Assembly: GCA_963751585.1 (NCBI GenBank)
Contig: CAVVVB010000014.1
Coordinates: 81,828 to 145,827, forward strand
Length of the DNA: 64,000 nt
Direction of reading: 5' to 3'
Source of the DNA: an uncultured Chloroflexia bacterium
GTDB lineage: Bacteria > Chloroflexota > Dehalococcoidia > GIF9 > UBA5629
The notes beneath the pieces were generated by a model, which ran no database searches, was not told where the DNA came from, and worked only from the letters and a program-made list of their open reading frames with translations. Shown piece by piece: positions 297 to 17,041 of the stretch. A program made the translations under genes and the position numbers. Within the stretch, counting starts at the first letter, position 1, and every line of letters begins with the position of its first letter.

Positions 297-1490
297 CTAC
301 TTGATTGTCTCAAAGACGGTATTTGGGGGGTAGATTTTCTCTACCCCCTTTCCTTCTCTGGATATGTCGGCTACCCTGATGATATCGATAGTGCATTTGT
401 CTCCGTTTACAGTGATCTTGGCGTAACCCAGAACATACTCCATACTGTTCTGATAGCCGGCAACCTTTTTTTCGTCTAGATCATAGGACGGTCCACCGCC
501 CATACCGTTAACTATATATTGGATACCGTGCGCATATATCCTTTCATAGGCGTGGATGTGCCCGTTAAACACCGCGTATACATGGTTTTGAATGAAGATA
601 TCCTCCCATAAATCCCTGAGTTGTGGATTACCCCCCCAATTCTTGGTATTCGAGCTATACAATGGATGATGGAAGAAAACAAATTTGAGCTTAGCATCAC
701 CGGCAATATCATTGCGAAGCCATTGTGTTTCAGCATCCAGGTCAGCCCAGTTATTACTGTCCATCAAGGTGAAATGGGCTTCTCCATCATCAAATGAATA
801 CCAGTCCGGGCTGCCAAAGGTCTCCTGGAAGAGCTGTTCATTCTCATCATGATTGCCGCGCACTACAAAGAGAGAAGTGCTAGCCAGCATCTTTCTGGCG
901 GCCTCAAAGAACCTGTTCCATTCATCGGGGTTGTCAGCTTGGCCGACCACGTCGCCGGTATGTATGACAAAGGATATGTCGGGCTCAGCGGCAATACGGT
1001 CGGCGACTAATCGATGTCTGTCCAGTTGAGTGAAAGTTGGTAATTGTTCCTGAGTGTCTCCGTACACGATGAATTTGTATGAGTTACCGCCCAACGTTCT
1101 GAACGTATAGTCAGGCGTGTTTTTATCTCCTATATCTACCCGGTAATGGTAGACTGTATCGGGTTGTAGCTGGACGAGATTAACGTGGTGCAGTTGCTTG
1201 TCTGTATCTGGCACACGAAGTTCGTACTGGCTTTGCCTCTTATTAGATACATTCGCAGAATATTCTACTGTGCCCTCACGTGACTCTTCGGTCTTCCAGT
1301 TTATTGTCGCCGAGGTGCTGCTGGTGTTGGTGATGTAAGGTCCCCATAACAAGGCCAGATTGTCTTCAACCGTACCCTTTTCAGTATTAACGGTCGGCTG
1401 ACAGGAGACCTGCGTAATAGCGGCTATTAAGACTACCAGGAACAAGCCGATAGTTGCCAGCCGGACTGGCTTATTCATCATCATTTCCAT
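297..1490 (-). CDS. Secreted metallophosphoesterase (purple-acid-phosphatase-like, with N-terminal FN3-like domain)
   Basis: N-terminal signal/TM (LATIGLFLVVLIAAI). Calcineurin-like phosphoesterase motifs GDTQEQ, GNHDENEQ and GHIHAYER. AAAGGA RBS before the ATG at 1490. Confidence 0.8.
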   Translation of the reverse strand: MEMMMNKPVRLATIGLFLVVLIAAITQVSCQPTVNTEKGTVEDNLALLWGPYITNTSSTSATINWKTEESREGTVEYSANVSNKRQSQYELRVPDTDKQLHHVNLVQLQPDTVYHYRVDIGDKNTPDYTFRTLGGNSYKFIVYGDTQEQLPTFTQLDRHRLVADRIAAEPDISFVIHTGDVVGQADNPDEWNRFFEAARKMLASTSLFVVRGNHDENEQLFQETFGSPDWYSFDDGEAHFTLMDSNNWADLDAETQWLRNDIAGDAKLKFVFFHHPLYSSNTKNWGGNPQLRDLWEDIFIQNHVYAVFNGHIHAYERIYAHGIQYIVNGMGGGPSYDLDEKKVAGYQNSMEYVLGYAKITVNGDKCTIDIIRVADISREGKGVEKIYPPNTVFETIK

Positions 1491-1510: not shown

Positions 1511-2557
1511 TCAGAAGAGATGGATCGCAGATCCTTTAAATATTACGTAAATCTGTTGGCCTTCCCGCAGACCCAATTCTTCAAAATGGCGGCGCGTGGC
1601 CAGGCAGGAAACAGCCGGCGGCAAATTTACCGTGACGAAGAGAATGGAACCCTTATTGATTATCCGAGTAATTACACCGGACAGACAATTATGTTCGCTG
1701 TCGTTGACAGGCTCGTGAGAAAGCAGGATATCTTCAGGGCGTATCGTGGCGTGCTCCATGCCGTCGGGGCTGCCGTCCAAAAGAAAATTAGCGCCGCTGG
1801 TCGCAAAAAAAGCCCGCCCGCTGGCGTTATGGACCACCTTGCCGGTGAAGATGTTCCGTGTCATGGCAAAACGGGCTACGAATTCCGAATTGGGATGGCG
1901 AAATATTTGTTCGGGCGTTCCCACCTGTTTCAATTTGCCCCCGGCGATAACGGCTATTTTATGGCCCAGTGCCACCGCCTCCTCGAAGTCGTGTGTAACG
2001 TGAATGGTGGTCATGTTCAGGTGTCGTTGAAGTTGGCGCAATTCGTCCTGTAAACCCTCGCGGGTTTCCGGGTCCAGTGAGCTGAGGGGCTCGTCTAATA
2101 GTAATACCGTAGGTTTGGTGACCAGAGCTCTGGCTAGAGCTACTTTCTGCTGTTCGCCCCCGCTTAAGGTAAGCGGTAATCGTTGAAGCAGAGGACTGAT
2201 TCCCAGGAGGCCGGTGATCCAATCAAGAGCCTCGTTTATGTCCTGCTTGCTTGTTTTGCGCAATCTCAGGCCAAAAACGATGTTCTCTTTCACGGAGAGA
2301 TGGGGAAACAGCGTTTGGTCCTGATATACGATGCCGACCCCTCTTTTTTCCGGTTCCAGATTGGTCACGTCGATATCCTTCAGCCATATCTGGCCGCCCT
2401 TGATCTGATGCAGGCCGGCGATTGACTCGAGGATGATTGTTTTACCGGCTCCGGTTGGCCCGAGGATAATGAAGTATTCGCCTTCGTTCACTTTGAGGCT
2501 GATATCGTCAATAGTGAAATTGCCCAGTTCCACTTTGAGGTTACTTATCTGTATCAT
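1511..2557 (-). CDS. wtpC: Tungstate/molybdate ABC transporter ATP-binding protein with C-terminal TOBE domain
   Basis: Walker A GPTGAGKT, ABC signature LSGGEQQKVALARAL, Walker B LLLDEP, and a ~110-aa C-terminal TOBE-like extension. Overlaps the permease gene by 4 nt (operon). Confidence 0.8.
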   Translation of the reverse strand: MIQISNLKVELGNFTIDDISLKVNEGEYFIILGPTGAGKTIILESIAGLHQIKGGQIWLKDIDVTNLEPEKRGVGIVYQDQTLFPHLSVKENIVFGLRLRKTSKQDINEALDWITGLLGISPLLQRLPLTLSGGEQQKVALARALVTKPTVLLLDEPLSSLDPETREGLQDELRQLQRHLNMTTIHVTHDFEEAVALGHKIAVIAGGKLKQVGTPEQIFRHPNSEFVARFAMTRNIFTGKVVHNASGRAFFATSGANFLLDGSPDGMEHATIRPEDILLSHEPVNDSEHNCLSGVITRIINKGSILFVTVNLPPAVSCLATRRHFEELGLREGQQIYVIFKGSAIHLF

Positions 2558-3345
2558 CTATCCTTGCCCCGGTAGGCCAGGCTTCTCAAGGTAACGAACA
2601 CGATTATGCTTATAAGAATCAGCAGGGCGGCTACTGGTCGCGCATAGTTCAAGCCGTAGGCTTCAAATCTTTCATAGAGAAGAACTGGGGCAATCATGGG
2701 GTGGTACGCCAGGATAATTACAGCACCAAATTCGCTTATGCCCCTCGCCCACATCATGATGTTGCCGGTGACGATGCTTCGCCAGGCGAGCGGCACTGAG
2801 ACTTTGGTAAAACTCTGCCAGGGTGAGGCACCCAGGGTGCGGGCCACTCTTTCCAGACGCACGTCTACCTTTTTGAAGCCATCTTTGGCTGAATTTATCA
2901 GGAAAGGTAGGCTCACAAAAAGCATGGCAATGACGATGCCCGCCGTGGAATCAACGAATTGAATACCTATGGCACCAAACATCTTCCCGACTATGAAGCT
3001 GCGCCCGAATACGAAGAGCAAGGCGATACCCGCTGCTGTATGCGGCACTACGATGGGCACGTCTATAAGCCCCTCTACAAACCTCTTTCCGGCGAAATCT
3101 GTTTTGGCCAGCACGTAGGCCAGGGGTATTCCGAACAGAAATCCTGCGGCAGTGGCTATGACTGCAGCAAATATGGTTAACTCAATGGCATTGATGACCT
3201 CGGTATCCAAGATCGTATCGAGCATTATCTTGGGATCGGAGGCTACGATCATCTTAACCAGAGGGACGATGATAAAAAGCAGGATTATCAGGCCCAGAAA
3301 GGCAAAGACAAGCGTCATTTTCTTGCTTGCGAGCCATTCTCTCAT
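2554..3345 (-). CDS. wtpB: Tungstate/molybdate ABC transporter permease
   Basis: 263 aa and polytopic, with an ABC-permease EAA-like loop (ARTLGASPWQSF). Translationally coupled to the ATPase. Confidence 0.75.
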   Translation of the reverse strand: MREWLASKKMTLVFAFLGLIILLFIIVPLVKMIVASDPKIMLDTILDTEVINAIELTIFAAVIATAAGFLFGIPLAYVLAKTDFAGKRFVEGLIDVPIVVPHTAAGIALLFVFGRSFIVGKMFGAIGIQFVDSTAGIVIAMLFVSLPFLINSAKDGFKKVDVRLERVARTLGASPWQSFTKVSVPLAWRSIVTGNIMMWARGISEFGAVIILAYHPMIAPVLLYERFEAYGLNYARPVAALLILISIIVFVTLRSLAYRGKDR

Positions 3346-3605
3346 GACGGTGCCGTCACTCCTTTAGCTCCTTCTCCCCCGATCGCATCGGGAGAGAGGT
3401 TTTCCTCCTTTTGAAAAGGAAGACTAAATCCCTCTCAATCTCCCTTTAGCGAAAGGGAGAAGTTTATCTCCCCCTTAGAAAAAGGAGGATTTGTTCAGCG
3501 GGCGCACCTGAAGGTACGCCCCTACGTTCTATACTATAGCACGCATGCACTGACAAACCCCTCTCAACCCCGATTTTATCGGGGGGGGTCAAGGGGATTT
3601 TGAAT
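3346..3605. repeat. Intergenic spacer inside the wtp operon carrying short palindromic repeats (CCCCCTT-loop-AAGGGGG type and CCCGAT-loop-ATCGGG type)
   Basis: Hairpin-forming motifs visible directly: ctcccccttagaaaaaggagg, cccgatcgcatcggg, ccccgattttatcgggggggg. The same motif family occurs at 32940-33420, 37440-37570 and 48086-48420. Confidence 0.6.
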
Positions 3606-4688
3606 TTACTGCACTATGGCGGCTATCTCCGGAGGCACTTGGGCCTTATTGTAGGCTATCGGCGGCGTTATACTGGGCTGATACGATTCAGCTAATATGC
3701 GCTGGCCTTCGGGGCCGAACAGAAACAGGAGAAACTGTATGGCTTCTTTGGGGTTCTGGGCGTTTCGGGGGATAGTGACGCCATATAATATGGGTTGGCC
3801 CTCAAAATCAGGGGCAATCGAGGCAAATCTCTGAAAATCGAGCTTAACCCTTACGTGACTATAATTGTCGGCGAATTCATCGGAGCTGAGGTCGATTTCC
3901 GACGGCAGTTCCAGGAAGTTCAAACCAGTCTGCCTGGCCACGCTCTCGTATTCAAAAGCGTAGTCAATGTCATGGGATTGCAGCAGGGCCAGCGTTTGTA
4001 TACTGTACGGCCTCATAACTACCTTGTTGTTAACGGGTTTTACTATTTCGGATACAGAAATTGCATAGGAGCCGTCAGTCGCCGAGACGCTTATGCTCTT
4101 TCCGAAGTTGTCGCCGATCAGCTTCTGGAAAATGGTACTATCGCCGTAATAGCCTTGAGCCAGCTGCACACACATAAGAGCCCTGTATCCCAGAGAATCG
4201 AAACGTGGGTCCGATATTCCGAGCTTGACGTCGGGACGCGACAAAATTGCGCACCAGTTCTGCGCATCTATTTCCGAGCTGTATTGGCTCTGGGGCGTAT
4301 AAGCGATGCCCAGCTTATTCCTGGCAAAGACTACGTACCAGTCCGCGTAAGGGCCTCGATTGTCCGGCATTTGCGCGTTGTACATCATGGCAGGTATGAG
4401 AGAATGATCAGCTACCGCTGCCACATCCACTTCATCATGCAAGTCCGTGATCTGCCGGATTACCTGCACGCTGCCGTGGCCCTCTATCAATACGTCTACA
4501 TCTGGGTGCCCGCTTTCAAACTCTTTCTCAATCTCTGTGAACGGCACCATCAGGCTGCCGGCATTGAAAACCTTTAATTTGATACTTCTTTGCCCTTCAA
4601 AGGCACAGGCATTTGAACTAGCTAGCAAGAGCGGGGCAATAATAGCCACTAAAAAGTAGAATATGACTTCTTTTCTTTTGACCGACAT
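3606..4688 (-). CDS. wtpA: Tungstate/molybdate ABC transporter substrate-binding protein, WtpA type
   Basis: Signal peptide. Strong similarity in pattern to the archaeal-type WtpA family (KVFNAGSL..PF.E.EKEFE..HP.VDV..E..GS....R.I..L...DV.A.AD..LIP..M, CGYRALMCVQLAQ). Confidence 0.75.
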   Translation of the reverse strand: MSVKRKEVIFYFLVAIIAPLLLASSNACAFEGQRSIKLKVFNAGSLMVPFTEIEKEFESGHPDVDVLIEGHGSVQVIRQITDLHDEVDVAAVADHSLIPAMMYNAQMPDNRGPYADWYVVFARNKLGIAYTPQSQYSSEIDAQNWCAILSRPDVKLGISDPRFDSLGYRALMCVQLAQGYYGDSTIFQKLIGDNFGKSISVSATDGSYAISVSEIVKPVNNKVVMRPYSIQTLALLQSHDIDYAFEYESVARQTGLNFLELPSEIDLSSDEFADNYSHVRVKLDFQRFASIAPDFEGQPILYGVTIPRNAQNPKEAIQFLLFLFGPEGQRILAESYQPSITPPIAYNKAQVPPEIAAIVQ

Positions 4689-4740
4689 GTAATGTGTCTC
4701 GACTACATTATTGTTTTGGAGTTATGACTTCTATTTTGTT

Positions 4741-5010
4741 TACCCACTTGACCCAGTGAAGCCCCTCGGTTAACAAAGGTTCGTCACCGAGGATAGCCAG
4801 CCGCAACGGCTTGCCGTAATCTTGGGTAAGCGCCTTGCCATCCTGTTCGTAGGCCAGGACCAGCCTCAGTTGCCCGTGGGTACCTCCTTCATTGTTTTAG
4901 GATCGTAAGTATTAAACTCTCCGTGAACCTGGTCATAGTCGAATATTGCCGAGTACCCATCGGTGGCCGACACCAGTACGGCATTTGAAGGCGTTAGCCC
5001 GCCGACAAGC
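4741..5010 (-). pseudogene. Degenerate or frame-broken second SUOX-fold-like domain continuing paralog A (two frame changes and one in-frame stop)
   Basis: Reverse-strand translation in shifted frames gives MLEDLCELVGGLTPSNAVLVSATDGYSAIFDYDQVHGEF...KEVPTGN, then LRLVLAYEQDGKALTQDYGKPLRLAILGDEPLLTEGLHWVKWVNKIEVI. This matches the family domain and the YedY/MsrP C-terminal motif GxPLRLxxPG..G...VKW...IEV. Confidence 0.5.
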
Positions 5011-6168
5011 TCACATAAGTCCTCGAGCATCGCGCCTCTCATCCGGGAAAGGTCCGTTTATGACACCGGCCGTGGTGAAGAATCCACCGGTCCCTTCATA
5101 TGCGGGCATTTCTCTGATGGCGTCGTAGCTGACCTTATTTTCTTTACCGTTGTTCCCGATGATGGTAACGTCCCAGGCAATGTTCGGATTGCTGGCTTGC
5201 GGCACATAAAAATAGACGGCCAGCGATGTTATAACGCATAGTACACCGGCCACGAGCAGGACAATGGCTCTGATATCAATCTTACCTGGTCTGGTTCTGA
5301 AACCTTTTTGCCTGATGACCAGATATATGCCCAGGCCCAGTAGAATTACCGCCAGAGCTCCTAGGGCAATCGGATCCCAGCGGTTATCGTTTGCAGGCTG
5401 GCCCTGTCCTTTTTCAACTGCCAGATTCTTGGGTACGCCTCCGGTATATATTCTGACCTCGGTAATCCATTTGCCCGAGAGCCCATTGGTGCTGGGAAAA
5501 CCTTCGTAGAAATGCTGGTATTTCTCCTGCGGCATGCAGACTTTCATGTCGGAGTTGCCGAATACGTATTGCCCCTCGGCGTTGGTCGTCCTGGGCATGA
5601 GCACCACCTGAATCGCCGTGCTATAGGCGTCACTGCCGGGGTAGCCGACACCGTAAGTTTCGCCAAATTTGGCATCTTCACCGTTATACCAGCACAAGGT
5701 AATCATCCCCTGCCTGTCCAGAGGCTCGTAGACATTGGGATAGGCGAAACTCTCCTGCCAGCCGTCAACAGCCACAATCATTACTTCGTCACCTGGTGAC
5801 ATACCACCGACCAGTTCACAGATATCTTTGATATTGGTACCTTTTACGGCTCCTTTGTCCTTGAGATTTGTCGTTTCCAGGGGGTCCCACATGTCTCCCT
5901 CGAACACGGGGCCCTGAAGGTAATAGTGTGTGTGGCCGTCTCCCTGCACCGGAAGATTCTTTTCCAACCACTGGTAAGTGACGGTCTTTTCGCCCAGTAT
6001 CTTAGTGCCATCCTTATCATATTTAACTATGTGTAATGAGCTGGTGGCGCCTGCCGCCTGTACCGGCGGCAATAGCGCGACCGAAATCGCTATACTGAGC
6101 AACAGGAGGACGCATATGACGCCAAGCTGGATCGGCTTTACGTACTTGTGGCCCTGCAATACGTTCAA
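5011..6168 (-). CDS. Paralog A of membrane-anchored protein family: N-terminal SUOX-fold-like (MsrP/YedY-like, Cys-less) domain, two TM helices, then start of a second domain copy
   Basis: Family motifs present: LPVQGDG, KDICELVGGMSPGDEV, AVDGW..F.YPNVY, ITLCWYNGED, QYVFGN, SGKWITEVRIY. Two hydrophobic helices (IALGALAVILLGLGIYLVI; AIVLLVAGVLCVITSLAVYFYV). Start codon is uncertain (TTG at 6168, no strong RBS). Confidence 0.6.
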   Translation of the reverse strand: MNVLQGHKYVKPIQLGVICVLLLLSIAISVALLPPVQAAGATSSLHIVKYDKDGTKILGEKTVTYQWLEKNLPVQGDGHTHYYLQGPVFEGDMWDPLETTNLKDKGAVKGTNIKDICELVGGMSPGDEVMIVAVDGWQESFAYPNVYEPLDRQGMITLCWYNGEDAKFGETYGVGYPGSDAYSTAIQVVLMPRTTNAEGQYVFGNSDMKVCMPQEKYQHFYEGFPSTNGLSGKWITEVRIYTGGVPKNLAVEKGQGQPANDNRWDPIALGALAVILLGLGIYLVIRQKGFRTRPGKIDIRAIVLLVAGVLCVITSLAVYFYVPQASNPNIAWDVTIIGNNGKENKVSYDAIREMPAYEGTGGFFTTAGVINGPFPDERRDARGLM

Positions 6169-6201
6169 TTTACTTGTCCAGTTTATTCGTTAACTGCTGT
6201 A

Positions 6202-7734
6202 TTAGCCACGCCGTCTTAAAAGAGCTACCAGAATGATGACTATGGCTGCGATTACCACAGCTATGGCCAATATTATGTACCACTGTATTGGCTGAGGCGG
6301 TTTTTCCGGTTTCGGAGTATTGGCACTATTCACCGGAGGCGCCGTCTTGATTTGTGCCTTTTGAATGAATTTGGCGGTAACAGTCTTGGCAGCATCCATA
6401 GTCACTGTGGTGGATGCCGAGCTAGGGTCGGCGATGCCGCTGCCGGTCCAGCCGGCAAACTGCCAGCCGCTGGCTGCAGTCGCCGTAATTTTGACCACGG
6501 TATCCTGGGCATAGGAATGATTTCCCGATGACGGTGTGATAGTGCCGCTGCCGTTTGTTGCCATGGTCAGTTTGTAATTCGTGGCGGCTGCCTGTTGTGT
6601 AAACTTAGCGGTTACGGTCCTGGCAGCGTCCACGGTAACCGTGGTGGCTGCCGATTTAGGGTCAGCGATGCCAGTGCCTGTCCATCCGGAGAACTGCCAG
6701 CCGCTGGCTGGGGTGGCGGTGATATCGACCACGGCCCCCTGGGCATAAGAATGGCTGCCTGATGACGGTGCGATAGTGCCGCTGCCGCTTACTGACATGG
6801 TCAGGTCGTAATTGTTAGCCGCTGCTTGCTGGGTAAAGTTGGCGGTAACGGTCTTGGCAGCGTCTATGGTCACCGTAGTAGATGCCGAGCTAGGGTCGGC
6901 GATGCCAGTGCCTGTCCATTCGGAGAACTGCCAGCCGCTGGCTGGGGTGGCGGTGATATCGACCACCGCCCCCTGCGTACAGGAATGGCTACCGGCTGCT
7001 GGTGTGATAGTGCCGCTGCCGCCCACTGACATGGTCAGGCTATAGCCTGCCGCCTGGTTGCTGTGAATATTTATCTGATTTACGTTCTTTACGGATAATC
7101 CGGTGGTAGTGGGATATTGCGTCCCGTCGGAAACGTAATAATGCCACCGGTTAGAAGGTAAATATTCATGCTCGTCCCAGTTGCCGAAAACATACTGACC
7201 GGCCGAGTTTGTAGTCTGGGCAAAGAATACCAGGCGTATACCATCTCCCCATGCCGGCACGTATTGCCCGTTATACCACCAGCAAAGGACCATCTTTCCC
7301 TGCTCAGGGTGTGGCGTATAGACGTTAGGGTAATCGAATGTCTTTTTGAAATTATCTACGGCCTTAACATCGACGGTATCCCCGGGAGACATGCCGCCTA
7401 CTAGCTCACACAGGTCTTTTAGGTCGGTGCCTTTATTGGCGCCCCAATCTTTGACATTGACCGTCTCGCTGGGATCCCACAGATTATTTGTGTCAAAGGT
7501 GGGACCCTGAAGGTATTGGTGGGTGGTGCCGTCACCCTGTACCGGCAGCGTGGACTCTAAGGTTTTAGAGTCAACGGTTTTTTGATTAATTACAGTGGTG
7601 CCATCGTTGGCATACTTGGTTACGGTAATTGATGTGGTGCCGTCTGCCAGCACCGGAGTCACGGACATGATACCGAGAACAGATGCCAGCAATATCAGAA
7701 GGCCGAGCATAGCTCGTTTCATCGGCTTAACCAT
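6202..7734 (-). CDS. Paralog B: signal peptide, SUOX-fold-like domain, 3 x ~93-aa InlB-B-repeat-like domains (GW motif), Pro-rich linker, C-terminal TM anchor with RRRG tail
   Basis: AGGAGGTG RBS 8 nt before the ATG at 7734 (MVKPMKRAML). Repeats YxLTMSV.GSGTI.P..GSHSYAQGAVVDITATPASGWQFSGWTGTGIADP appear three times. C-terminal WYIILAIAVVIAAIVIILVALLRRRG. Confidence 0.7.
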   Translation of the reverse strand: MVKPMKRAMLGLLILLASVLGIMSVTPVLADGTTSITVTKYANDGTTVINQKTVDSKTLESTLPVQGDGTTHQYLQGPTFDTNNLWDPSETVNVKDWGANKGTDLKDLCELVGGMSPGDTVDVKAVDNFKKTFDYPNVYTPHPEQGKMVLCWWYNGQYVPAWGDGIRLVFFAQTTNSAGQYVFGNWDEHEYLPSNRWHYYVSDGTQYPTTTGLSVKNVNQINIHSNQAAGYSLTMSVGGSGTITPAAGSHSCTQGAVVDITATPASGWQFSEWTGTGIADPSSASTTVTIDAAKTVTANFTQQAAANNYDLTMSVSGSGTIAPSSGSHSYAQGAVVDITATPASGWQFSGWTGTGIADPKSAATTVTVDAARTVTAKFTQQAAATNYKLTMATNGSGTITPSSGNHSYAQDTVVKITATAASGWQFAGWTGSGIADPSSASTTVTMDAAKTVTAKFIQKAQIKTAPPVNSANTPKPEKPPQPIQWYIILAIAVVIAAIVIILVALLRRRG

Positions 7735-7833
7735 TTGTATCCACCTCCTAGAAAGCCAAGCTGTAGAGACAGTGAAAAAGAGCCCCATCGATAGTCCCAT
7801 ATTTTCACTGAGTAACCTCCTTCTGTAATCTAC

Positions 7834-10533
7834 TTATTGAATGGTAAAGTCAGCACCGCTAGTACCGAAGACGGTCGTGGTGGTGACGCTGGCCACTTTT
7901 ATCCTGGCTGTACCGGTGGCAGGCCCGGTTACCGTCCAGGAGTAGGTACCGTCGAGAGCCGGCACACCGCCCCTGGGGGTGATGGCTAACCAGGAACGGC
8001 CACTGTTTCTGGAGATATAGATATTGACGTTGCCGGCGAGGTGGTCAGAAATCCAGGTTATGTACAGGAGCTGGCCGACTGACGCGGTCTCACCGCCGTT
8101 CGGATAGGTGACGGTGATGTTACCGCCGGAGATGGTAAAGTCAGTATCGCTGGCATCGAAGACGGTGGTTATATCGGCCCTGGCGATTTTGACTTTGGCC
8201 TGGGTGCTGGTTGGCGTGGTTGCGGTCCAGGAGTAAGTGCCGGAGTTGGGTATACCGCCACGTGGGGTGATGGCTATCCAGGAACGGCCATCGTTTCTGG
8301 AGATGTAGATGTTGACGTTGCTGGGGACGTGGTCGGAGCTCCAGTTTATATAGAGAGGCTCGCCGATGTAGGCGATTTCACCGCCGTTGGGGCTATAAAC
8401 GGTAATGGTGCCGGCTGAGATGTTAAAGTCGTTGGCGCTGGCACCGAAGACGGTGGAGATATCGACCCTGGCGATTTTGACTTTGGCCAGGATGGTGGTC
8501 GGTATGGTTGGGGTCCAGGAGTAAGTGCCGGAGTTGGGAACACCGCCCCTGGGGGTGATGGCTATCCAGGAACGGCCATCGTTTCTGGAGATGTAGATGT
8601 TGACGTTGCTGGGGACATGGTCGGAGATCCAGTTTATATAGAGAGGCTCGCCGATGTAGGCGATCTCGCCGCCGTTGGGGCTATAAACGGTAATGGTGCC
8701 GGCTGAGATGTTAAAGTCGTTGGCGCTGGCACCGAAGACGGTCGTGGTGGTGACGCTGGCCACCTTTATCCGGGCTGTGGCTGATGGCAGCCCGGTTACC
8801 GTCCAGGAGTAGGTACCGGAGTTGGGAACACCGCCCCTGGGGGTGATGGCTAGCCAGGATTTACCGCTATTTCTGGAGACATAGATATTGACCATGGCGT
8901 CGCTGGGGACGTGGTCTGAGGTCCAGTTTATATAGAGAGACTCGCCGATGTAGGCGATCTCGCCGCCGTTGGGGCTATAAACGGTAATGGTGCCGGCTGA
9001 GATGTTAAAGTCGTTGGCGCTGGCACCGAAGACGGTCGTGGTGGTGACGCTGGCCACCTTTATCCGGGCTGTGGCTGATGGCAGCCCGGTTACCGTCCAG
9101 GAGTAGGTACCGGAGTTGGGAACACCGCCCCTGGGGGTGATGGCTAGCCAGGATTTACCGCTATTTCTGGAGACATAGATATTGACCATGGCGTCGCTGG
9201 GGACGTGGTCTGAGGTCCAGTTTATATAGAGAGACTCGCCGATGTAGGCGATCTCGCCGCCGTTGGGGCTATAAACGGTAATGGTGCCGGCTGAGATGTT
9301 AAAGTCGTTGGCGCTGGCACCGAAGACGGTCGTGGTGGTGACGCTGGCCACCTTTATGCGGGCCGTACCAGAAGCTGGCCCGGTTACCGTCCAGGAGTAG
9401 GTGCCGGTGTTGTCGACACCGCCGCTGGGGGTAATAGCTGTCCATGAGGTGCCGCTGTTTCTGGAAATATAGATATTGACGTTGCCGGCCACATGGTCTG
9501 AGGTCCAGTTTATATAGAGAGACTCGCCGACGTAGGCGATCTCGCCGCCGTTGGGGCTATAAACGGTAATGGTGCCGGCTGAGATGTTAAAGTCAGCGTC
9601 GCTGGTATCGAAGATGGCGGGGGCATCAGCCCTGGCGATCTTGACTCTGGCCTGGGTGCTGGCTGGCCCGGTTACCGTCCAGGAGTATGAGCTGTCGCTG
9701 GCAGGTACACCGCCGCTGGGGGTGATGGCTGTCCATGAAGTGCCGCTGTTCCTGGAGATATAGATATTAACGTTGCTGGTAACCGTGGAAGGGTTCCAGG
9801 TTATGTTCAGAGGCTCACCGACGTAGGCGGTCTCACCGCCGTTCGGGGAAAGAACGGTCACGTTAGCGGCTTTATATATGTTTATCTGGCTCAGGGTATA
9901 ACCCGATAGGCCGGTAGTGGTGGGATATTGGTTATCAAAATAGTACCATCGATTTGAGGGAAAACAGTCATGCTCGTCCTGGTTGCCAAAGACATACTGA
10001 CCGAGGGAATTTTTGGTTTGGGCAAAGAAAAACAGTCGCAGGCCGTCTACCCAGGTGGGCACGTACTGCCCGTCATTCCACCAGCAGATAACCATCTTCC
10101 CTTGCCGGGGCTGCGGCGTATAGACGTTGGGATAGTCGAAGGTATAGTTCCAGCCATCTATGGCACTGATTTTCACTGTATCCCCCGGGGACATGCCGCC
10201 CACCAGGTTACACAGGTCCTTGAGGTCGGTCCCCTTGCAGGCACCATAGTCTTTAATATTGACCGTCTCGCTGGGATCCCACAAATTATTAAGGTCGAAT
10301 GTTGGCCCCTGCAGCATATAGTGGGTGACGCCGTCACCCTGCACCGGCATGGACTCCATGGTGGTATAGTCAATGGTCGTTTGGCCTAGCACAGTGACTC
10401 CATCGCTGTCGTACTTGGTTATGGTTATCGACGTAGTGCCGTCTGCCAGTACCGGAGTGGCAGTTATTACACCGACAATAGATGCCAGCAATATCAGAAT
10501 GCCAAGCACGGCTCGATTCATCGATTTAACCAT
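7834..10533 (-). CDS. Paralog C: signal peptide, SUOX-fold-like domain, about 8 tandem ~95-aa beta-sandwich repeats with BNR/Asp-box-like SRNSGxSW motif; candidate S-layer or surface protein
   Basis: AGGAGGTG RBS before the ATG at 10533 (MVKSMNRAVLG). Signal cleavage is probably after VLA. Repeats ITVYSPNGGEIAYIGESLYINWTSDHVP..VNIYxSRNSGKSWLAITPRGGVPNSGTYSWTVTG..ARIKVA occur about 8 times, two copies identical at DNA level. Confidence 0.7.
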   Translation of the reverse strand: MVKSMNRAVLGILILLASIVGVITATPVLADGTTSITITKYDSDGVTVLGQTTIDYTTMESMPVQGDGVTHYMLQGPTFDLNNLWDPSETVNIKDYGACKGTDLKDLCNLVGGMSPGDTVKISAIDGWNYTFDYPNVYTPQPRQGKMVICWWNDGQYVPTWVDGLRLFFFAQTKNSLGQYVFGNQDEHDCFPSNRWYYFDNQYPTTTGLSGYTLSQINIYKAANVTVLSPNGGETAYVGEPLNITWNPSTVTSNVNIYISRNSGTSWTAITPSGGVPASDSSYSWTVTGPASTQARVKIARADAPAIFDTSDADFNISAGTITVYSPNGGEIAYVGESLYINWTSDHVAGNVNIYISRNSGTSWTAITPSGGVDNTGTYSWTVTGPASGTARIKVASVTTTTVFGASANDFNISAGTITVYSPNGGEIAYIGESLYINWTSDHVPSDAMVNIYVSRNSGKSWLAITPRGGVPNSGTYSWTVTGLPSATARIKVASVTTTTVFGASANDFNISAGTITVYSPNGGEIAYIGESLYINWTSDHVPSDAMVNIYVSRNSGKSWLAITPRGGVPNSGTYSWTVTGLPSATARIKVASVTTTTVFGASANDFNISAGTITVYSPNGGEIAYIGEPLYINWISDHVPSNVNIYISRNDGRSWIAITPRGGVPNSGTYSWTPTIPTTILAKVKIARVDISTVFGASANDFNISAGTITVYSPNGGEIAYIGEPLYINWSSDHVPSNVNIYISRNDGRSWIAITPRGGIPNSGTYSWTATTPTSTQAKVKIARADITTVFDASDTDFTISGGNITVTYPNGGETASVGQLLYITWISDHLAGNVNIYISRNSGRSWLAITPRGGVPALDGTYSWTVTGPATGTARIKVASVTTTTVFGTSGADFTIQ
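7900..9870. repeat. Coding tandem repeat array in paralog C, period 285-288 bp, about 8 copies, two adjacent copies 100% identical
   Basis: Visible by direct comparison: ~8735-9022 is essentially identical to ~9023-9310. The copy at 8284-8460 is very similar to 8569-8750. Confidence 0.8.
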
Positions 10534-10631
10534 CAAATCCACCTCCTATAAAATCCAAACTACAGAGGCAGTGAAATGGGGACGTATCGTTAGCCCCCAT
10601 CTCACTGGTGGCCTCTTTTCCTGGAATCTCT

Positions 10632-13600
10632 TTATTGGATACTAAAGTTAGCATCGCTGGCATCGAATACGGTAGTGATATCGGTCCTGGCGACCTTTAC
10701 TTTTGCCGTGGTGGAGGCTGGCTTGGTTACCAGCCAGGAATAGGTGCCGGTGTTGGCCGGTACACCGCCACGGGAGGTGATGGCGGTCCATGATAGGCCG
10801 CCGTTTCTGGAGATATAGATATTGACATTGACGTTGCCGGGAACGTGATCGGAAGTCCAGGTTATGTTGTCGCTCTCGCCAATGTGCCAGGTTTCGTAGC
10901 CATTCGGGGCAGTGACCGTAATGGTACCGCCTGAGATGGTAAAGCTAGCACCGGTACCGTAGACGGTGGCCATATCGGCCCTGGCAACCTTGACTTTGGC
11001 CGTGGCAGCGGTGGTAACTGGCGTCTTTACCAGCCAGGCGTAGGTGCCGGTGTTGGCCACACCGCCGGCTGGAGTGATAGCAGTCCATGATAGGCCGCCG
11101 TTTCTGGAGACATAGATGTTGACATTGCTGGGAACATGGGAGGAAGTCCAGGTTATGTTGTCGCTCTCGCCGATGTACCAGGTATCGCCGTTACTGGGGG
11201 TATCAACGGTAATGGTGCCGCCTGAGATGGTAAAGCTATCACTGGTAGTGTAGACGGTGGCCATATCGGCCCTGGCAATCTTGATCTTGGCCGTGGCAGC
11301 GGTGGTAACTGGCGTCTTTACCAGCCAGGCGTAGGTGCCGGTGTTGGCCACACCGCCGGCTGGAGTGATAGCAGTCCATGATAGGCCGCCGTTTCTGGAG
11401 ATATAGATGTTAAGCTTGCTGGGAACATGGGAGGAAGTCCAGGTTATGTTGTCGCTCTCGCCGATGTACCAGGTATCGCCGTTACTGGGGGTATCAACGG
11501 TAATGGTGCCGCCAGAGATGGTAAAGCTATCACTGGTAGCGTAGACGGTGGCGATATCGGCCCTGGCAATCTTGATCTTGGCCTGGGTAGCAACCGGCGT
11601 AGTTACCAGCCAGGAATATAAGCTGGTGTTGGGCACACCGCCCCTGGGGGTGATGGCGGTCCATGATAGGCCGCCGTTTCTGGAGATATAGATGTTAACA
11701 TTGCTGGGAACATGGGAGGAAGTCCAGGTTATATTGTCGCTCTCGCCGACGTACCAGGTATCGCCGTTACTGGGGGTATCAACGGTAATGGTACCGGCTG
11801 AGATGGTAAAGTCAGCGTCGCTGGTATCGAAGACGATGGGCATGGAGATGCTGGCCACCTTGATCCGGGCTGTAGCCGTAACCGGCGTGGTTACCAGCCA
11901 GGAGTAGCTGCCGGTGTTGGGGGCACCGCCGCGGGGGCTGATGGCGGTCCAGGATTTACCGCTGTTTCTGGATATGTAGATATTGACGTTGCCGGTGACG
12001 CCGGTCGTACTCCAGGTTATGTTCTCGCTCTCACCGATATAGGCGGTCTCGCCGCCGTTTGGGGAAGTAACCTCGACTGGTAGATTGACCGCAAAGCTGG
12101 CGCTGATTGTATGTTTGTCGGTAACATGGTGAAACGTGTAACTGGTTACCGCGCCCTCGGATTGGCCATCGACGAGCACATTGGCGACATGGCAGCCGGG
12201 ATCCGGGGCGATGTCGAATGACTTGTCTGCATCGTAGGCAACCAGTACGTCGCCGTCTGGTGTTATGGAGCCGTGAGCACCGGCGCTGGCAGTAATCGTG
12301 GGAGGCAGGTCGGTCAGCGCGATGCTGGTAATGTTGGATATCGACATAACTCCGGTAACAGCCGAGCCCACCAGTGTGGGAGGGTAAGTGGGGGGAAGGA
12401 CGGGCCAGGGTAAGTGGGAGGGAGGGCCGGTCCGTCTGTAGGTCCAGCAACCAGGATATTTTTCTTCTGGGGCCGGCTACGAAACTGCTGTCAAAAGTGT
12501 AGTTATCGCTATCGCTGGAAACGGTAACCGTATACCCTAGTTCGGCCATTTGGTCGTTGAAGGCGCCCTGGCCGTGGGTGATGCTGTCATCAACAAAGCC
12601 ACAGATCAGGTACAGCGGCAGACCTTCCCAGGTGCTGCTGCCATCCCAGTACTGAATGCCGTGCTCACAGATGACGCCGTCTTCGAACTCGGCTTGAGTC
12701 AGAGTGTGATCGACGGCGCCGGAAAGCTGTATGTGCCATGTGTCTATGGGTGGCACACCAACCAGCTCTATCCTGGCGACGTTGCCGATCATCTGGTCGT
12801 CGGTTAATCCCTCGCCGACCAGCTTGAGCGGGTAATCCGGGCGCGGACAGCTGCTGGCCGTTCTCGGTATTGGCCACGATTATATTAGCGTTTCTGGCCA
12901 CGTCTTGACTGGCAAGGTCGGAGGTGGTGCCATTGTCTGAAGTTAGTCTGACCGTGTAGCCGGCACGAGCCAGGGCATCGTTGAAAGCACCTACCCCGAG
13001 GTGATTATTAGCGTCATCGGCCCAGCCGCAGAGCAGCCACAGGGGCATGCCTTTCCAGATATTGTGGCTGGCATCTGTCCACGTTTTGCCGTGGTTAGCG
13101 TCCGAGCAAACGACCCCATTCTCGAACAGGCTCTCGGTTATGTTGTCGCTATAGGGGCCAACCAATTGTAATGACCACGGCTGCAGATTCTTATATATGT
13201 TGACTGCAGTAATCCACTTGATCGAAAGCCCGTCGCACGACGGATACCCATCGTTGTAATGCCAGTTGGCCTGGGGCAGGTAATGCCCCATGTCCCAGTC
13301 CCCGAAGACGTATAGGCCGGCAGCGTTGGGTGCCGGCGCCATGAAAACAAGCTGCATGCCTTCTTCGAACGCGGGGACAGATGCGCCGTCAGGGTAAAGG
13401 GGCGCGCCCAGGTTCTGCCCGGCGTTCCTGGTATACCAGCAGATGACCATCTTTCCTTGGTTCGGATCCAGATCATAGATATTGGTGTACTGGAAGCGTT
13501 CGCCGTAGCCGTCGGCGGCCAGGATCTGTATTTGATCGCCGGGATCGGCACCGCCGACCAATTCGCATAGATCCTTAACATCCGTCCCCTTGACGGCGCC

Positions 13601-13900
13601 CTTGTCCTTAAGTTCCGCTGTAACGTTCTCCGAGGGGTCCCACGGATTGTTGGGGTCATATGTAGGCCCTTCCATATAGTAGTGCCTGATCCCATCACCC
13701 TGAACTGGTAAGGTCATCATGTCCTGGTAGGTCTTAATCGTGGTGGCCAATACTGTAGTGCCATCAACGTTATATTTGGTCACTGTTAATGAGGTTGTAG
13801 GTGGTGCGTCTGCTGACGCAGGCACTGGCCTAACCCCGCCGGTAACCAGCCCGGCCAGCAGGGCCAGGCAGAATACGATGCCGACTATCCTCGATTTCAT
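10632..13900 (-). pseudogene. Paralog D: ~1090-aa surface protein (signal peptide, SUOX-fold-like domain, duplicated ~110-aa module, Pro-rich linker, InlB-B-repeat-like domain, 5 x ~94-aa BNR-like repeats) read in three frames. Either frame-broken or two consensus indels.
   Basis: AAGGAGTG RBS before the ATG at 13900 (MKSRIVGIVFCLALLAG). Frame changes near 12830-12850 (…LSAPG then PDYPLKLVGEGLTDDQMIGNVARIEL in the +1 frame) and near 12385-12480 (C6/G6 homopolymer at 12390-12395 inside a pyrimidine-rich Pro-linker). Track ORFs 12665..13945, 12031..12792 and 10632..12371 are consecutive pieces. Confidence 0.55.
10700..12020. repeat. Coding tandem repeats in paralog D, period about 282 bp, 5 copies
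   Basis: Repeated protein unit ITVDTPSNGDTWYIGESDNITWTSSHVPSNVNIYISRNGGLSWTAITP.GGV.NTGTY.WLV.TPV. Adjacent copies are near-identical at DNA level (e.g. 11040-11320 vs 11320-11600). Confidence 0.75.
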
Positions 13901-14154
13901 CTGTTCACTCCTTACGAGGCAACCGTTGTCTCCAGCCGGCGGCAATAAACGTACCGGGCGGGTGCCCGGCTGACGATATATGCGGAATGCGCATCCTGCC
14001 GGATGCCCCGCACCGATACATTAACCTCGCCTCTCATTTCACCAAAAGTCCACACACGCGCAAAGCATGTCGGCTCGCCTGATGGGGCGAGGCAACTCAG
14101 TTAGCTGCCTGGCGCGTATGTCGCTACAAAGCGCCTGGACGCTGAATAGTCCAA

Positions 14155-15465
14155 TCACAGAACAGAGAAGGCATTCGTTAGTGTGATAGTGACTCCTCCA
14201 CATGTCACTGAAACATCTCTGGTTCCGAGGCCAGCATTGGGCTTAACTGTAATGTGGACTGTTATGTTTGTGGAAGTGGCCGTGAATCCGTCTACGGTTA
14301 TCCCGGTGCCAAAACTGACTGCGGTGGTACGGCTGAGATTTTTCCCAGTGATGGTTACAGTCATCCCCTTGCCCCGAAGGCCCATCGCCGGCTTCACCGA
14401 AGACAAGCTGGGACCTGTGGTAAAGGAGGCGGCTATGGTGTGGTTGGCGGTAACGTTGGAGAATGTGTAACTGGTCACCGCACCCACCGACCTGCCATCC
14501 ACCAGCACGTTGGAGACCTGGTAGCCGGCTGCCGGCGTGATGGTGAAGGTCTGGTTAGTTCCCTGGTCGACCGACACGGCACCGGAAGGGGATATCGAGC
14601 CGCTGAGACCTGCAGTGGCGGTGATGACGTGGAATTGAACGAAGGTGGCGGCCAGGGTGTGGTTAGCGATTACGTTGCTGAAAGTGTAGGTGATGGCTGG
14701 AGTCACAGAGCCTCCATCTATAGTCAAAGTGGCGACACGATAACCTGCAGCCGGGGTGATATTGAATGTCTGGCTGCCGTTGTAAGTGACAGGCACCGTA
14801 CCAGGGGGAGATGCGCCGGTCCAGGGGTTGGTGTTAGGGGACCCACTGGACCATGTGTAGGACGCAGCTGAAATGGTACCATGGGTGGGGGCGGTAGCAA
14901 CCGCAACGGTATACACCAGCTTGATATCGTGAACGTTGTTGTTATAGTATTTGCTTGCAGGAAGAGAAGGACAAACCAATCTTGGCAGGTTTGTCGTATC
15001 CGGGGTGGTCGGCGGATTGGTCGTGTCTTTATATCCGCTATCGGCAATAATGAGGCTATTGTTACCTTTAACAGCTATGTTCATAGCGGCAGGTCCAACA
15101 ATGTTAGGCCCAACAAGAACCGTGTACGGGTTCGCCGAATTATCTAATACCAGGGCACTATAACCTGACATTCCGCTTACGCCAGTAAGTTGCTCCAGAA
15201 GCCGATAAACCGGTACGCCGGTATAGGAATAGTAATTGGTGGTGCCGCCGCCGCTCGTGTATGTGCCGTTATCAGTTTGGCTGTAGCTAGCCTTCAGATT
15301 GTTCCACGTGGTGGTATCTATGGTGACACTGGTAGAGCCGAGCCATACTGTAATGGGTGGATAGCCCGACCCTGCCGCCACAGGTAGCGCCGTGACTAAC
15401 AAAGCGCCTACAATAGCCAACGTGAACAGAACACCAAATATACTTTTGCGATTAAATCCTTTCAA
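14155..15465 (-). CDS. Paralog E: signal peptide, divergent SUOX-fold-like domain, InlB-B-repeat-like domains, C-terminal IPT/TIG-like domain
   Basis: Signal peptide with AAGSGYPP. YTGVPVYRLLEQLTGV…SGYSALVLDNSANPYT…NLPRLVCPSLPASKYYNNNVHDIKLVY parallels the YedY layout. Repeats …GY.V..L.IDG.SV……YTFSNV.ANHT..A.F appear twice, then a TIG-like segment (MTVTITGKNLS…VSFG). Confidence 0.6.
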   Translation of the reverse strand: MKGFNRKSIFGVLFTLAIVGALLVTALPVAAGSGYPPITVWLGSTSVTIDTTTWNNLKASYSQTDNGTYTSGGGTTNYYSYTGVPVYRLLEQLTGVSGMSGYSALVLDNSANPYTVLVGPNIVGPAAMNIAVKGNNSLIIADSGYKDTTNPPTTPDTTNLPRLVCPSLPASKYYNNNVHDIKLVYTVAVATAPTHGTISAASYTWSSGSPNTNPWTGASPPGTVPVTYNGSQTFNITPAAGYRVATLTIDGGSVTPAITYTFSNVIANHTLAATFVQFHVITATAGLSGSISPSGAVSVDQGTNQTFTITPAAGYQVSNVLVDGRSVGAVTSYTFSNVTANHTIAASFTTGPSLSSVKPAMGLRGKGMTVTITGKNLSRTTAVSFGTGITVDGFTATSTNITVHITVKPNAGLGTRDVSVTCGGVTITLTNAFSVL

Positions 15466-15837
15466 TTGTTTCCTCCTTCGATGTTTGTTGGATAATGTTT
15501 TAGGTCAATTGGTAGGCTAACTATTTCTTGTCTCTAATCACCTCCCTTGGCCAAACCGCATCCGGTCAAAGCGGCCGTTGCCGATTCGGTCTGAGTATAT
15601 TGGGGCCGGAGTTGCCTGAATGGAGGTGGATAAGGAGATGTTAAAAGGGAAGGACGGACAAGAAATAGAGAGTGTTGGTCATTATTCCAATTACCGCTCC
15701 TGTTGGAAAAACTATACATGTTATCTCCTTTCCAAGAATGGGAGGTATCACCTTTTCAGGTGATGCCCTACGGGCCTTTCTTCCTGGGATCACCCTTTAG
15801 AAGATAAGACTCGGAGATCGAATATGCCTGGCTATAT

Positions 15838-17041
15838 TTAATTCAAGAAGGACGTGTTACCCGTTTCCCCGGTATCGTAACCGCCGATCTTGGTAACCGA
15901 ATCCTTGAAATCATTGCTGTGGACGATCTCCAGAAGAGACGCCATGAGCGGGCTATCATATTTTGCCGTCGGCATTACCAGGTCATACCTCTCGCGGAAC
16001 AAGGGCAGAAAATCAATTTCGCAGGCACGAGCCGCTGCCTCGATGCCTAAACCGACGTCACCCTGGCCCCTGGCTATGCTGACCGCTACCGCCATGTGTG
16101 TGCTCAGTTCATGTTCGTAACCGTTGACCTCAGACGGTAGTATTCCGTGCCGCCTTAGCTCCTGATCGAGAAGGACACGCGTGCCCGAACCTTTCTGTCG
16201 GTTGACGAAGATAAGGTCATGACGCTTCAGGTCTTCTATGCCCTTGATTCCCTTAGGGTTATGTGGGAGCGAACATTAGCCCCTGTATGCGGTAAGCCAG
16301 GTGAACGATGGTTATTTTCTGACCGGGAAACAAGCGTTTCACGTAGGGATAGTTATACTCCATTGTCTCTTCGTCCAGGAGATGAATTCCGGCCAGGTCG
16401 GCTCTGTCTTCTTGAAGAGCAATGAGACCACCCAGGCTGCCGGCGTGGGTAATTTCGATATTGATCTCCGGATTTTGGCGTCTGAGCTGGTCAACCAAAA
16501 GATTGAGAGCCAAATCATGGCTGCCTACTATGGATATGGTATTCTGGCCGTTAGCCCTGGCGAGTTTATGGCCCGATGCCTCTTCGCCGCCGCTTTTCCG
16601 CTCCTCGTACCAGCGCGCCAGATGAAGGTAAAAAGTTGCCTCGAGTTCCCGGGGGCTATATCCTAAACTCAAAACTCCCAGGATATTATCGCTAACAATA
16701 TTGTCCAGACGCTTCTGACGCAGCGTTAACATCTGCGGGTCGGTGGAGCTGGCGGACACTATAGTGCCGCCGCCGCGCCGTGAAACTATCACTCGGTCCT
16801 GTTCCAGCTCCAGATAAGCTCTAACTACCGTACCCGGATTGATGCCTAAGTTTTGGGCTAGCTGTCTAACCGTGGGCAGGTGGTCCCCGGGCTGAAGCTG
16901 GCCGGTGGCGATAGATTGCTTGACTTGCTCTACTATCTGCTTGTATAGCGTCGTTGACGCACTCTGGTCAATGTTCACCGCCAATATTCCTTTATCCCAC
17001 AGTGATTTTTTGTACGACTTGTACGGGCGCAATTGTAACAA
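15838..17041 (-). CDS. Transcriptional regulator: GntR-family HTH fused to PBP_like (COG1910-type molybdate/tungstate-binding) domain; one frame break near 16262-16275
   Basis: N-terminal HLPTVRQLAQNLGINPGTVVRAYLELEQDRVIVSRRGGGTIV. C-terminal ISIVGSHDLALNLL…GSLGGLIALQEDRADLAGIHLLDEETMEYNYP, continuing in the +1 frame as NPKGIKGIEDLKRHDLIFVNRQKGSGTRVLLDQEL…THMAVAVSIARGQGDVGLGIEAAARACEIDFLPLFRERYDLVMP. Track ORFs 16259..17041 and 15838..16095 are the pieces. Confidence 0.6.

Follow-up and report, generated by a model that had tools for sequence, protein, structure and literature searches.

The stretch of DNA analysed here (the window, 64,000 nucleotides in full, to which all positions refer) comes from contig CAVVVB010000014.1 of the genome assembly GCA_963751585.1 of an uncultured Chloroflexia bacterium. 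It contains five neighbouring genes, here called E, D, C, B and A, each of which begins with a domain of the sulfite oxidase (SUOX) superfamily, two different subtypes being represented. They are preceded by a riboswitch aptamer of the molybdenum cofactor (Moco)/tungsten cofactor (Tuco) class and followed by wtpA, wtpB and wtpC, which encode a tungstate/molybdate transporter, and all these features are on the minus strand (Table 1). In total, the locus encodes eight SUOX-superfamily domains. An earlier reading of this DNA from the letters alone (below, the sequence-only reading) had described the surface-protein genes, and was silent on the riboswitch and wtpABC context and on the two internal SUOX-like repeats of D.

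Table 1. Genes and RNA elements of the SUOX-wtpABC locus, in window coordinates
Feature	Positions	Strand	Description
GntR helix-turn-helix (HTH) + PF12727 (PBP_like) regulator	15838..17041	-	frame-broken; upstream of the riboswitch
Moco/tungsten-cofactor riboswitch aptamer (RF01055)	15709..15828	-	found by cmscan; P3 stem absent; upstream of gene E
Gene E	14155..15465	-	signal peptide; divergent SUOX-like N-domain 14887-15372; two InlB-B-type repeats; IPT/TIG
Gene D	10632..13945	-	signal peptide; N-domain 13181-13801; two D2-type SUOX-like repeats 12830-13183 and 12475-12741; C-terminal to these an InlB-B-like domain and ~4.5 Kre9/KNH-like immunoglobulin (Ig) repeats
Gene C	7834..10542	-	signal peptide; N-domain 9862-10440; ~7 Kre9/KNH-like Ig repeats with an Asp-box-like motif
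Gene B	6202..7800	-	signal peptide; N-domain 7051-7641; three InlB-B-type repeats; C-terminal transmembrane anchor
Gene A	4708..6168	-	signal peptide; N-domain 5437-6048; two transmembrane helices; PF00174-type small SUOX domain ~4708-5268
wtpA	3606..4688	-	tungstate/molybdate substrate-binding protein, divergent: Glu ligand replaced
wtpB	2554..3345	-	permease; NF040839, BPD_transp_1
wtpC	1511..2557	-	ATPase; NF040840

The proteins encoded by A to D share an N-terminal domain of about 200 residues (the N-domain), which carries the ordered set of motifs described in the sequence-only reading and is 48% (A), 70% (C) and 52% (D) identical to that of B. A hidden Markov model (HMM) of the family recognizes the four copies with 253-329 bits. 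The same reading had counted E as a fifth member, and here it was too generous, since E is not matched by the family HMM. In sequence searches the N-domain stands apart. No Pfam or NCBIfam model matches it; the copy in B has no match to PF00174, the Moco-binding oxidoreductase family, even at E 10 (gathering threshold 24 bits), and over this domain neither PF00174 nor any other Pfam model matches any of 83 family members. Searches of the PDB with the single sequence and with a profile of the 83 sequences returned nothing meaningful. An AglB_core-like Pfam match (E 0.002, under the cutoff) was rejected as noise, and so was the name "argininosuccinate synthase" attached to some homologs, for which no Pfam domain is recorded or could be found.

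The fold of the N-domain is visible only by structure and profile-profile comparison. An AlphaFold2 model of residues 53-252 of B, built from the 83-sequence alignment, has a predicted local distance difference test score (pLDDT) of 97.8 and a predicted template modelling score (pTM) of 0.92. When this model was compared with the PDB by Foldseek, chicken sulfite oxidase and four PruR proteins ranked first (probability 1.00, E 4e-5 to 5e-4), with TM-scores of 0.46-0.51 normalized to the query, or 0.61-0.67 normalized to the PruR targets. PruR is a secreted protein with a cysteine-less SUOX fold that binds pterin, and its structures were described in 2024 (PMC11194511). In addition, the N-domain profile can be linked to the second domain of A, which does match PF00174: the probability is 96.8% against the single sequence and 98.4% (hhalign, E 6e-15) against a profile of 23 relatives of that domain. 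The model of the N-domain thus has the SUOX fold, that is, three-dimensional similarity to the Moco-binding domain, as the sequence-only reading had predicted; the values obtained lie above the levels at which that reading was ready to give up the call (a fold probability of 50% and a TM-score of 0.4), and no other family outscores sulfite oxidase and PruR.

The second domain of A is the one closest to canonical SUOX proteins, again as anticipated. After repair of frameshifts it matches PF00174 with E 7e-11 (42.4 bits, cutoff 24); in the PDB, the profile of its 23-sequence family retrieves plant sulfite oxidase (E 1.7e-6) and SoxC (1.3e-5). The open reading frame (ORF) of A covers 5011-6168 and is followed by two single-base frameshifts before the stop at 4708. 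The repaired gene is an in-frame fusion of two proteins of about 290 and about 195 residues, which are encoded by separate genes in 75 other loci; the fusion is shared only with L076, the closest relative of the window (84% identity between the B homologs). Both frameshift sites (GPYRMRGAML and HGKLRLVL) are intact in L076, although it is broken in B and wtpC, and the indels of the window lie in short homopolymers (TTTCCC; AAA to AA). Therefore, the frameshifts are best regarded as assembly errors and the fusion as real. Gene D consists of three reading-frame pieces with at least three frameshifts, as read directly from the DNA. Single-base frameshifts are concentrated in this locus and map to about 5035-5045 and 4865-4875 in A, 12850 and 12380-12470 in D, and 16095-16259 in the GntR-PF12727 regulator. 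Assembly errors explain all of these most simply, and the indels suggest a long-read origin. Pseudogenization of A and D was judged less likely, given the homopolymer sites and a relative that is intact there and broken elsewhere.

A third type of SUOX-like domain is found as the two D2-type repeats of D, which belong to a family of domains of about 140 residues. This family accompanies the N-domain in large proteins of 55 of 76 loci, usually in 3-5 tandem copies. Its profile matches that of the small SUOX family with 97.1% probability (hhalign, E 6e-11, 126 columns), and the repeats of intact homologs match PF00174 directly; in L013, for example, five stretches together reach 142.8 bits (1e-41). 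The residues conserved in D2-type repeats include C27 (70%), H32 (77%), D38, D57-D58 (100%) and Y77 (100%), a set that looks like a metal or ligand site. The divergent N-domain of E appears to be related to the same type. It has no relatives in the 75 related loci, a word-based homolog search came back empty, and a full HMMER scan of 1.84 billion representative proteins gave 8 relatives. Compared by hhalign, it reaches 1-2% probability against the profiles of the A-D N-domain and the small domain, and the profile of its 8 relatives reaches 95.1% (E 3e-8) against the D2-type repeats. A single-sequence AlphaFold2 model of the E domain is too poor for use (pLDDT 41). On this profile evidence E is a distant relative, not a member, of the A-D N-domain family.

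Downstream of the SUOX-like domains, the proteins carry the repeat arrays noted in the sequence-only reading, which can now be assigned to particular genes. InlB-B-type Flg_new_2 repeats are present in B and E, Kre9/KNH-like Ig repeats with the Asp-box-like motif SRNxGxSW in C and D (the Kre9_KNH match in D has E 9e-14), and IPT/TIG in E, where both TIG (25.1 bits) and Flg_new_2 (23.9 bits) exceed the Pfam cutoffs. At the DNA level the arrays form tandem repeats at 7857-9848 in C (period 288, 6.9 copies) and 10726-12038 in D (4.5 copies), with units of 288-291 nucleotides and 84-85% matches; C holds two identical units of 96 residues. These repeats are recently expanded or homogenized and prone to assembly collapse. 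Directly downstream of wtpC is a metallophosphoesterase/purple-acid-phosphatase-like gene (297-1490, minus strand; its counterpart in L076 is at 16446-16994), which groups with the surface-protein family by common repeat domains.

Across the family, the export signals are of the Sec type or are N-terminal anchors. A twin-arginine-like motif is seen in 2 of 192 N-domain proteins and in 1 of 18 small proteins, the latter within an ORF extension that is probably spurious. An N-terminal hydrophobic helix is present in each of the 35 small proteins, and 50 of the 72 N-domain proteins of about 290 residues have a C-terminal hydrophobic anchor. With Sec-type signals, stalks and membrane anchors, the A-E proteins are displayed outside the membrane, in agreement with the surface location proposed earlier. 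Exported Moco enzymes such as MsrP/YedY receive their cofactor in the cytoplasm and are exported by the twin-arginine translocation (Tat) pathway. Export by a Sec-type route therefore speaks against the usual loading of these domains with Moco. Archaeal members (L068 6183-9899, P0056 and others) additionally contain CBM6/CBM35, PKD, DUF4430 and dockerin-type domains, which hint at attachment to glycan or cell-envelope structures.

The absence of the molybdenum-ligating cysteine points in the same direction. In SUOX-family Moco enzymes the ligating cysteine stands at the end of the beta-hairpin ahead of the W-x-G-V-x-L motif. The region of the N-domain that aligns with this hairpin is a near-invariant H-x3-Q-G-P-x-F, and in the small family it is G-x-G-G-F-F-S/T with sporadic cysteines; neither family has a conserved cysteine upstream of the K-G-T/V motif. 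This mapping is by weak sequence alignment only. Within these limits, it agrees with the earlier proposal that QGPTF or GFFTT occupies the position of the cysteine. Describing the domain as cysteine-less is correct for the canonical ligand position, but not for the domain as a whole, because at least 90% of N-domains keep C79 in the motif DLCxLVGG. This residue belongs to the helix that follows the W-x-G-V-equivalent motif and does not coincide with the ligand position. If the ligands are Cys104 in SorA and Cys98 in plant sulfite oxidase, as we assume, the canonical cysteine of these two enzymes lies 27-29 residues upstream of W-x-G. Of the D2-type repeats, 70% have a cysteine that precedes W-x-G-x-P-L by 17-21 residues. 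SUOX-fold domains without the canonical ligating cysteine are not conventional Moco enzymes. In PruR, whose ligands are neopterin and monapterin, a P-W motif replaces the cysteine and the pocket is formed by N102, Y104 and W160 (PMC11194511). The P-W motif was not seen in the alignments of the N-domain or the small family; the small family has invariant D-G-Y and W-V-K-W motifs, and the N-domain contains D-G-[FWY].

The riboswitch is matched by RF01055 over the full model (1-135) with 71.4 bits (gathering threshold 36, E 1e-15), the P3 hairpin being deleted in the alignment. Variants lacking P3 have been proposed to sense the tungsten cofactor (PMC2408646; PMC11725836). Among 16 bacterial loci scanned (15 from the genome scan described below, plus L076), the first SUOX gene is directly preceded by a riboswitch, often in tandem, in L001, L005, L006, L007, L009, L010, L013, L015, L032, L046 and L076. 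Both P3-lacking and P3-containing forms precede these genes; P3 is present, for example, in L015 and L006. In S. wolfei, Regulski et al. (2008) noted P3-lacking RNAs in front of "putative sulphite oxidase" genes, an exception that was left unexplained (PMC2408646). Since the Syntrophomonas loci L057 and L069 carry the same combination of SUOX genes and wtpA (the SUOX-wtpA module), those genes are very probably members of it.

Between the aptamer and the start of E are about 240 nucleotides (15466-15708), in which a simple scan finds no terminator-like hairpin; promoter and terminator scans performed no better than on shuffled sequences. The regulator upstream of the riboswitch has both a GntR (E 2e-17) and a PBP_like (E 1e-22) match, its C-terminal piece being in the ORF at 15838-16095. 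Homologous GntR-PF12727 regulators are present in L003, L005, L012 and L076, and PF12727 is a domain type that occurs in tungstate-responsive TunR regulators.

WtpA scores 318.8 bits against TIGR03730 (cutoff 242.75) and matches the WtpA/ModA structures of A. fulgidus and M. acetivorans with E 1e-74. For wtpB, which also matches Pfam BPD_transp_1, the best NCBIfam match is the WtpB equivalog (E 6e-96; 321 bits, under the cutoff of 340), and for wtpC it is the WtpC equivalog (E 1e-117; 393 bits, under the cutoff of 440). The association with SUOX genes extends far beyond the window. In a scan of one genome per GTDB species, 371 stretches were found to encode the N-domain. The hosts are Dehalococcoidia, Anaerolineales and other Chloroflexota, Methanomicrobiales, Methanosarcinales, anaerobic methanotrophic (ANME) archaea of ANME-1/-2, Bathyarchaeia, Syntrophomonadaceae, Peptococcaceae and Moorellaceae. 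In the 75 loci that were compared, many of them truncated, the conserved neighbours are wtpA (47 loci), wtpB (35) and wtpC (33), and there are no others; further recurrent "clusters" of neighbours proved to be antisense ORFs and were discarded. The recurrent order is large proteins with N- and D2-type domains, the N-domain protein of about 290 residues, the small protein of about 195 residues, wtpA, wtpB and wtpC, where the small protein consists of an N-terminal helix and a PF00174-type domain. In 47 of 53 cases wtpA is the gene next downstream of the small SUOX gene, in the same orientation, typically with a 4-nucleotide overlap or within about 30 nucleotides. The number of SUOX-like domains per locus has a median of 6 and a maximum of 14. 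A literature search for a link between Wtp transport and SUOX-fold proteins found nothing relevant.

The WtpA proteins encoded after the small SUOX gene differ from others in their binding site. In WtpA, tungsten is coordinated octahedrally with Asp and Glu carboxylate ligands (PMC10221389). The Asp is kept in all 50 SUOX-linked sequences. However, the segment with the Glu ligand, S-M-E-M-E in WtpA of A. fulgidus and M. acetivorans, is replaced by G/D-G/S-S-[VI]-[QFYA]. In the window the segment reads P-Y-S-I-Q (about 4020-4035), with Ser at the Glu position and Gln in place of the second Glu. Extra wtpA copies that follow wtpC in the same loci keep one Glu (K-S-V-E-L). It is possible that the SUOX-linked proteins represent a distinct WtpA subtype, and the substitutions suggest that the binding site may have been modified to match the accessory proteins. 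In the 260-nucleotide gap between wtpA and wtpB of the window (3346-3605) no Moco riboswitch is detectable at E <= 1; the equivalent gap of L002 holds one. A tupA-like second tungstate transporter is found beside the module in L025, L009, L010, L047, L051 and L059, in L025 with its own Moco riboswitch (15995-16134 of that locus).

Taken together, these data are consistent with a role of the SUOX-like proteins as non-catalytic surface modules of tungsten and molybdenum scavenging, which would relay a ligand to WtpA. We would give this reading an even chance. It draws directly on the fold, the type of export, the lack of a conserved canonical cysteine, the riboswitch and the conserved synteny; the nature of the ligand and its hand-off are inferred. 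According to this scheme, genes E-D-C-B-A and wtpABC would form one unit under the Moco/tungsten-cofactor riboswitch, presumably switched on when the cell is short of cofactor. Proteins C, D and E may be displayed on long Ig-like stalks, B and the first part of A may be held by C-terminal membrane anchors, and the small domain of A could be tethered by its N-terminal helix next to the transporter. The three divergent SUOX subtypes (N-domain, D2-type and small PF00174-type) would act as ligand-binding modules without catalysis. Tungstate, molybdate or a tungsten- or molybdenum-pterin species might be captured at the surface and passed inward to the membrane-proximal small SUOX protein and to WtpA, in a relay analogous to the NEAT-domain heme relays of Gram-positive bacteria. 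More speculatively, strict anaerobes of both prokaryotic domains may possess a dedicated surface tungsten/molybdenum relay made wholly of cysteine-less SUOX domains, feeding a WtpA without the Glu ligand and controlled by a Moco/Tuco riboswitch, with tungstate, thio-tungstate or even a scavenged metal-pterin cofactor as candidate cargo; we regard this wider generalization as tentative, somewhat short of an even prospect.

Several observations weigh against this scavenging role. The affinity of WtpA alone for tungstate is already very high (PMC10221389), and it is not obvious why a relay should be needed. The experimentally known ligands of the fold are pterins (Moco, and neopterin or monapterin in PruR), not free oxyanions. 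Some family members are found away from any wtp genes (L033, L039 and L044). The residue-level mapping of the cysteine comes from weak sequence alignments instead of structural superposition, and the cysteine of the D2-type repeats might be equivalent to the canonical ligand. Finally, riboswitch control is equally compatible with enzymes that use the cofactor.

Alternatively, the proteins may be genuine extracytoplasmic SUOX oxidoreductases with a molybdenum or tungsten cofactor, acting on an external substrate and co-transcribed with the importer of the metal they need. The small and D2-type domains do match PF00174, the name given by the Prokaryotic Genome Annotation Pipeline (PGAP) is "molybdopterin-dependent oxidoreductase", and the D2-type repeats show partial conservation of a Cys/His/Asp set. 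Cofactor-using enzymes, too, are found behind Moco riboswitches, a reading weighed by Regulski et al. (PMC2408646). However, there is no Tat signal, although the cofactor is inserted in the cytoplasm, the N-domain and the small family have no conserved canonical cysteine, no heme, Fe-S or cytochrome partner is among the conserved neighbours, and tandem arrays of 3-5 catalytic domains would be unprecedented. We therefore consider such enzymes very unlikely. The same absence of the cysteine, together with secretion, is shared with PruR, and the domains could instead be PruR-like pterin sensors that carry no metal, recognize a pterin (or a breakdown product of the cofactor) outside the cell and influence WtpABC or some other partner in the membrane. 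The presumed counterparts of PruR motifs, D-G-Y and W-V-K-W, are invariant in the small family (PMC11194511), but the PruR P-W motif is absent, the partner is an ATP-binding cassette (ABC) transporter instead of a DcpA-type signalling protein, and cofactor sensing is already supplied by the riboswitch. Moreover, 6-14 domains per locus on long stalks seem excessive for a sensor; the number of domains, which would suit stoichiometric capture, and their display on stalks or anchors speak more for capture than for sensing. A sensory role thus seems unlikely to us, though not implausible.

A variation on the metal theme is that the domains provide a layer of selectivity or buffering, sequestering the congener that is not wanted (such as molybdate or thiomolybdate as against tungstate) or storing metal outside the cell. 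It shares the riboswitch and synteny context with the scavenging relay, and it could accommodate both the occurrence of P3-containing and P3-lacking riboswitches before the module in different lineages and the loss of the characterised Glu ligand from the linked WtpA, whose selectivity may be altered. Nevertheless, induction under cofactor shortage favours acquisition over exclusion, and we find this role distinctly unlikely. The proteins could also be ordinary surface proteins or adhesins, with a structural or carbohydrate-binding SUOX-like domain and an incidental link to wtpABC. Ig-like, PKD, CBM6/35, dockerin and InlB-B domains all accompany the SUOX domains, and the copies remote from wtp genes would fit. 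Such a coincidence is hard to reconcile with synteny conserved across two domains of life, with start/stop overlap with wtpA and with the position of these genes as the first behind the riboswitch in 11 related loci and in the window, and it appears highly improbable.

Methanogenesis, syntrophy, acetogenesis and organohalide respiration all depend on tungsten and molybdenum enzymes. To our knowledge, the described uptake systems for these metals consist of a binding protein and an ABC transporter only. Conserved, riboswitch-controlled surface proteins beside wtpABC point to an unrecognized step of trace-metal acquisition in sulfidic, metal-poor habitats, its hosts being methanogens, ANME archaea, Dehalococcoidia and syntrophs. 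A surface relay, if true, would add a new class of machinery for metal acquisition and show the Moco-binding fold in a new role outside redox chemistry. It would explain the 2008 exception in the Moco/Tuco riboswitch regulon of S. wolfei, correct widespread misannotations such as "argininosuccinate synthase", "molybdopterin-dependent oxidoreductase" and "hypothetical", define a domain family of about 200 residues that Pfam lacks, and show that non-catalytic SUOX folds, for which PruR is the precedent, are not confined to Proteobacteria.

SUOX-family Moco enzymes (sulfite oxidase, SorA/SorT, SoxC, MsrP/YedY and assimilatory nitrate reductase) have a conserved molybdenum-ligating cysteine, unlike the N-domain and the small family. 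They are Tat-exported or cytoplasmic, whereas the module proteins use Sec export, lack dimerisation, heme or redox partner domains and, in the case of the N-domain, are not seen by PF00174. The transporter is a close homolog of the WtpABC/archaeal class III ModA tungstate transporters (P. furiosus WtpA, A. fulgidus AF_0094) and shares their Asp ligand, but E-x-E is replaced by S-[VI]-[QFYA] in SUOX-linked WtpA. We know of no SUOX-fold accessory proteins described for the characterised Wtp systems.

The nearest precedent is PruR, a small, non-enzymatic periplasmic protein of Agrobacterium, Vibrio and Klebsiella (PDB 7kos, 7kp2 and 7rkb). Like the domains in the window, it is secreted and has no molybdenum-ligating cysteine; it is among the best structural matches to the N-domain, and its aromatic pterin-stacking positions may, judged by motif, be kept in the small family. 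In contrast, sequence identity between PruR and the module domains is about 11-20%, and the PW motif is not shared. PruR is a proteobacterial single-domain protein paired with the cyclic di-GMP (c-di-GMP) enzyme DcpA, whereas the module is found in archaea, Chloroflexota and Firmicutes, has three domain subtypes, arrays, and stalks or membrane anchors, and is linked in the window to wtpABC under a Moco riboswitch. A PruR-type bicistronic operon with a DcpA-type GGDEF-EAL partner (or a TorS/BaeS-type one) was not found in the related loci, where wtpABC are the only conserved neighbours. Because the operon partner, taxa, motifs and architecture all differ, the module is not a member of the PruR family. 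The claim of the sequence-only reading that no family with this architecture has been described thus needs to be narrowed: non-catalytic, secreted SUOX-fold binding proteins without the cysteine are already known from PruR, and it is the system context, with its operon partner, taxa and architecture, that is new.

The Isd/NEAT heme relay of Gram-positive bacteria offers an analogy in function only. Its fold and ligand are unrelated, and the transfer between domains that is demonstrated for NEAT is entirely hypothetical in the module. Yet, on the scavenging reading, in both cases an operon induced by nutrient limitation encodes paralogous surface proteins with one to several copies of one ligand-binding domain, and a membrane-proximal member stands beside a substrate-binding protein and an ABC importer.

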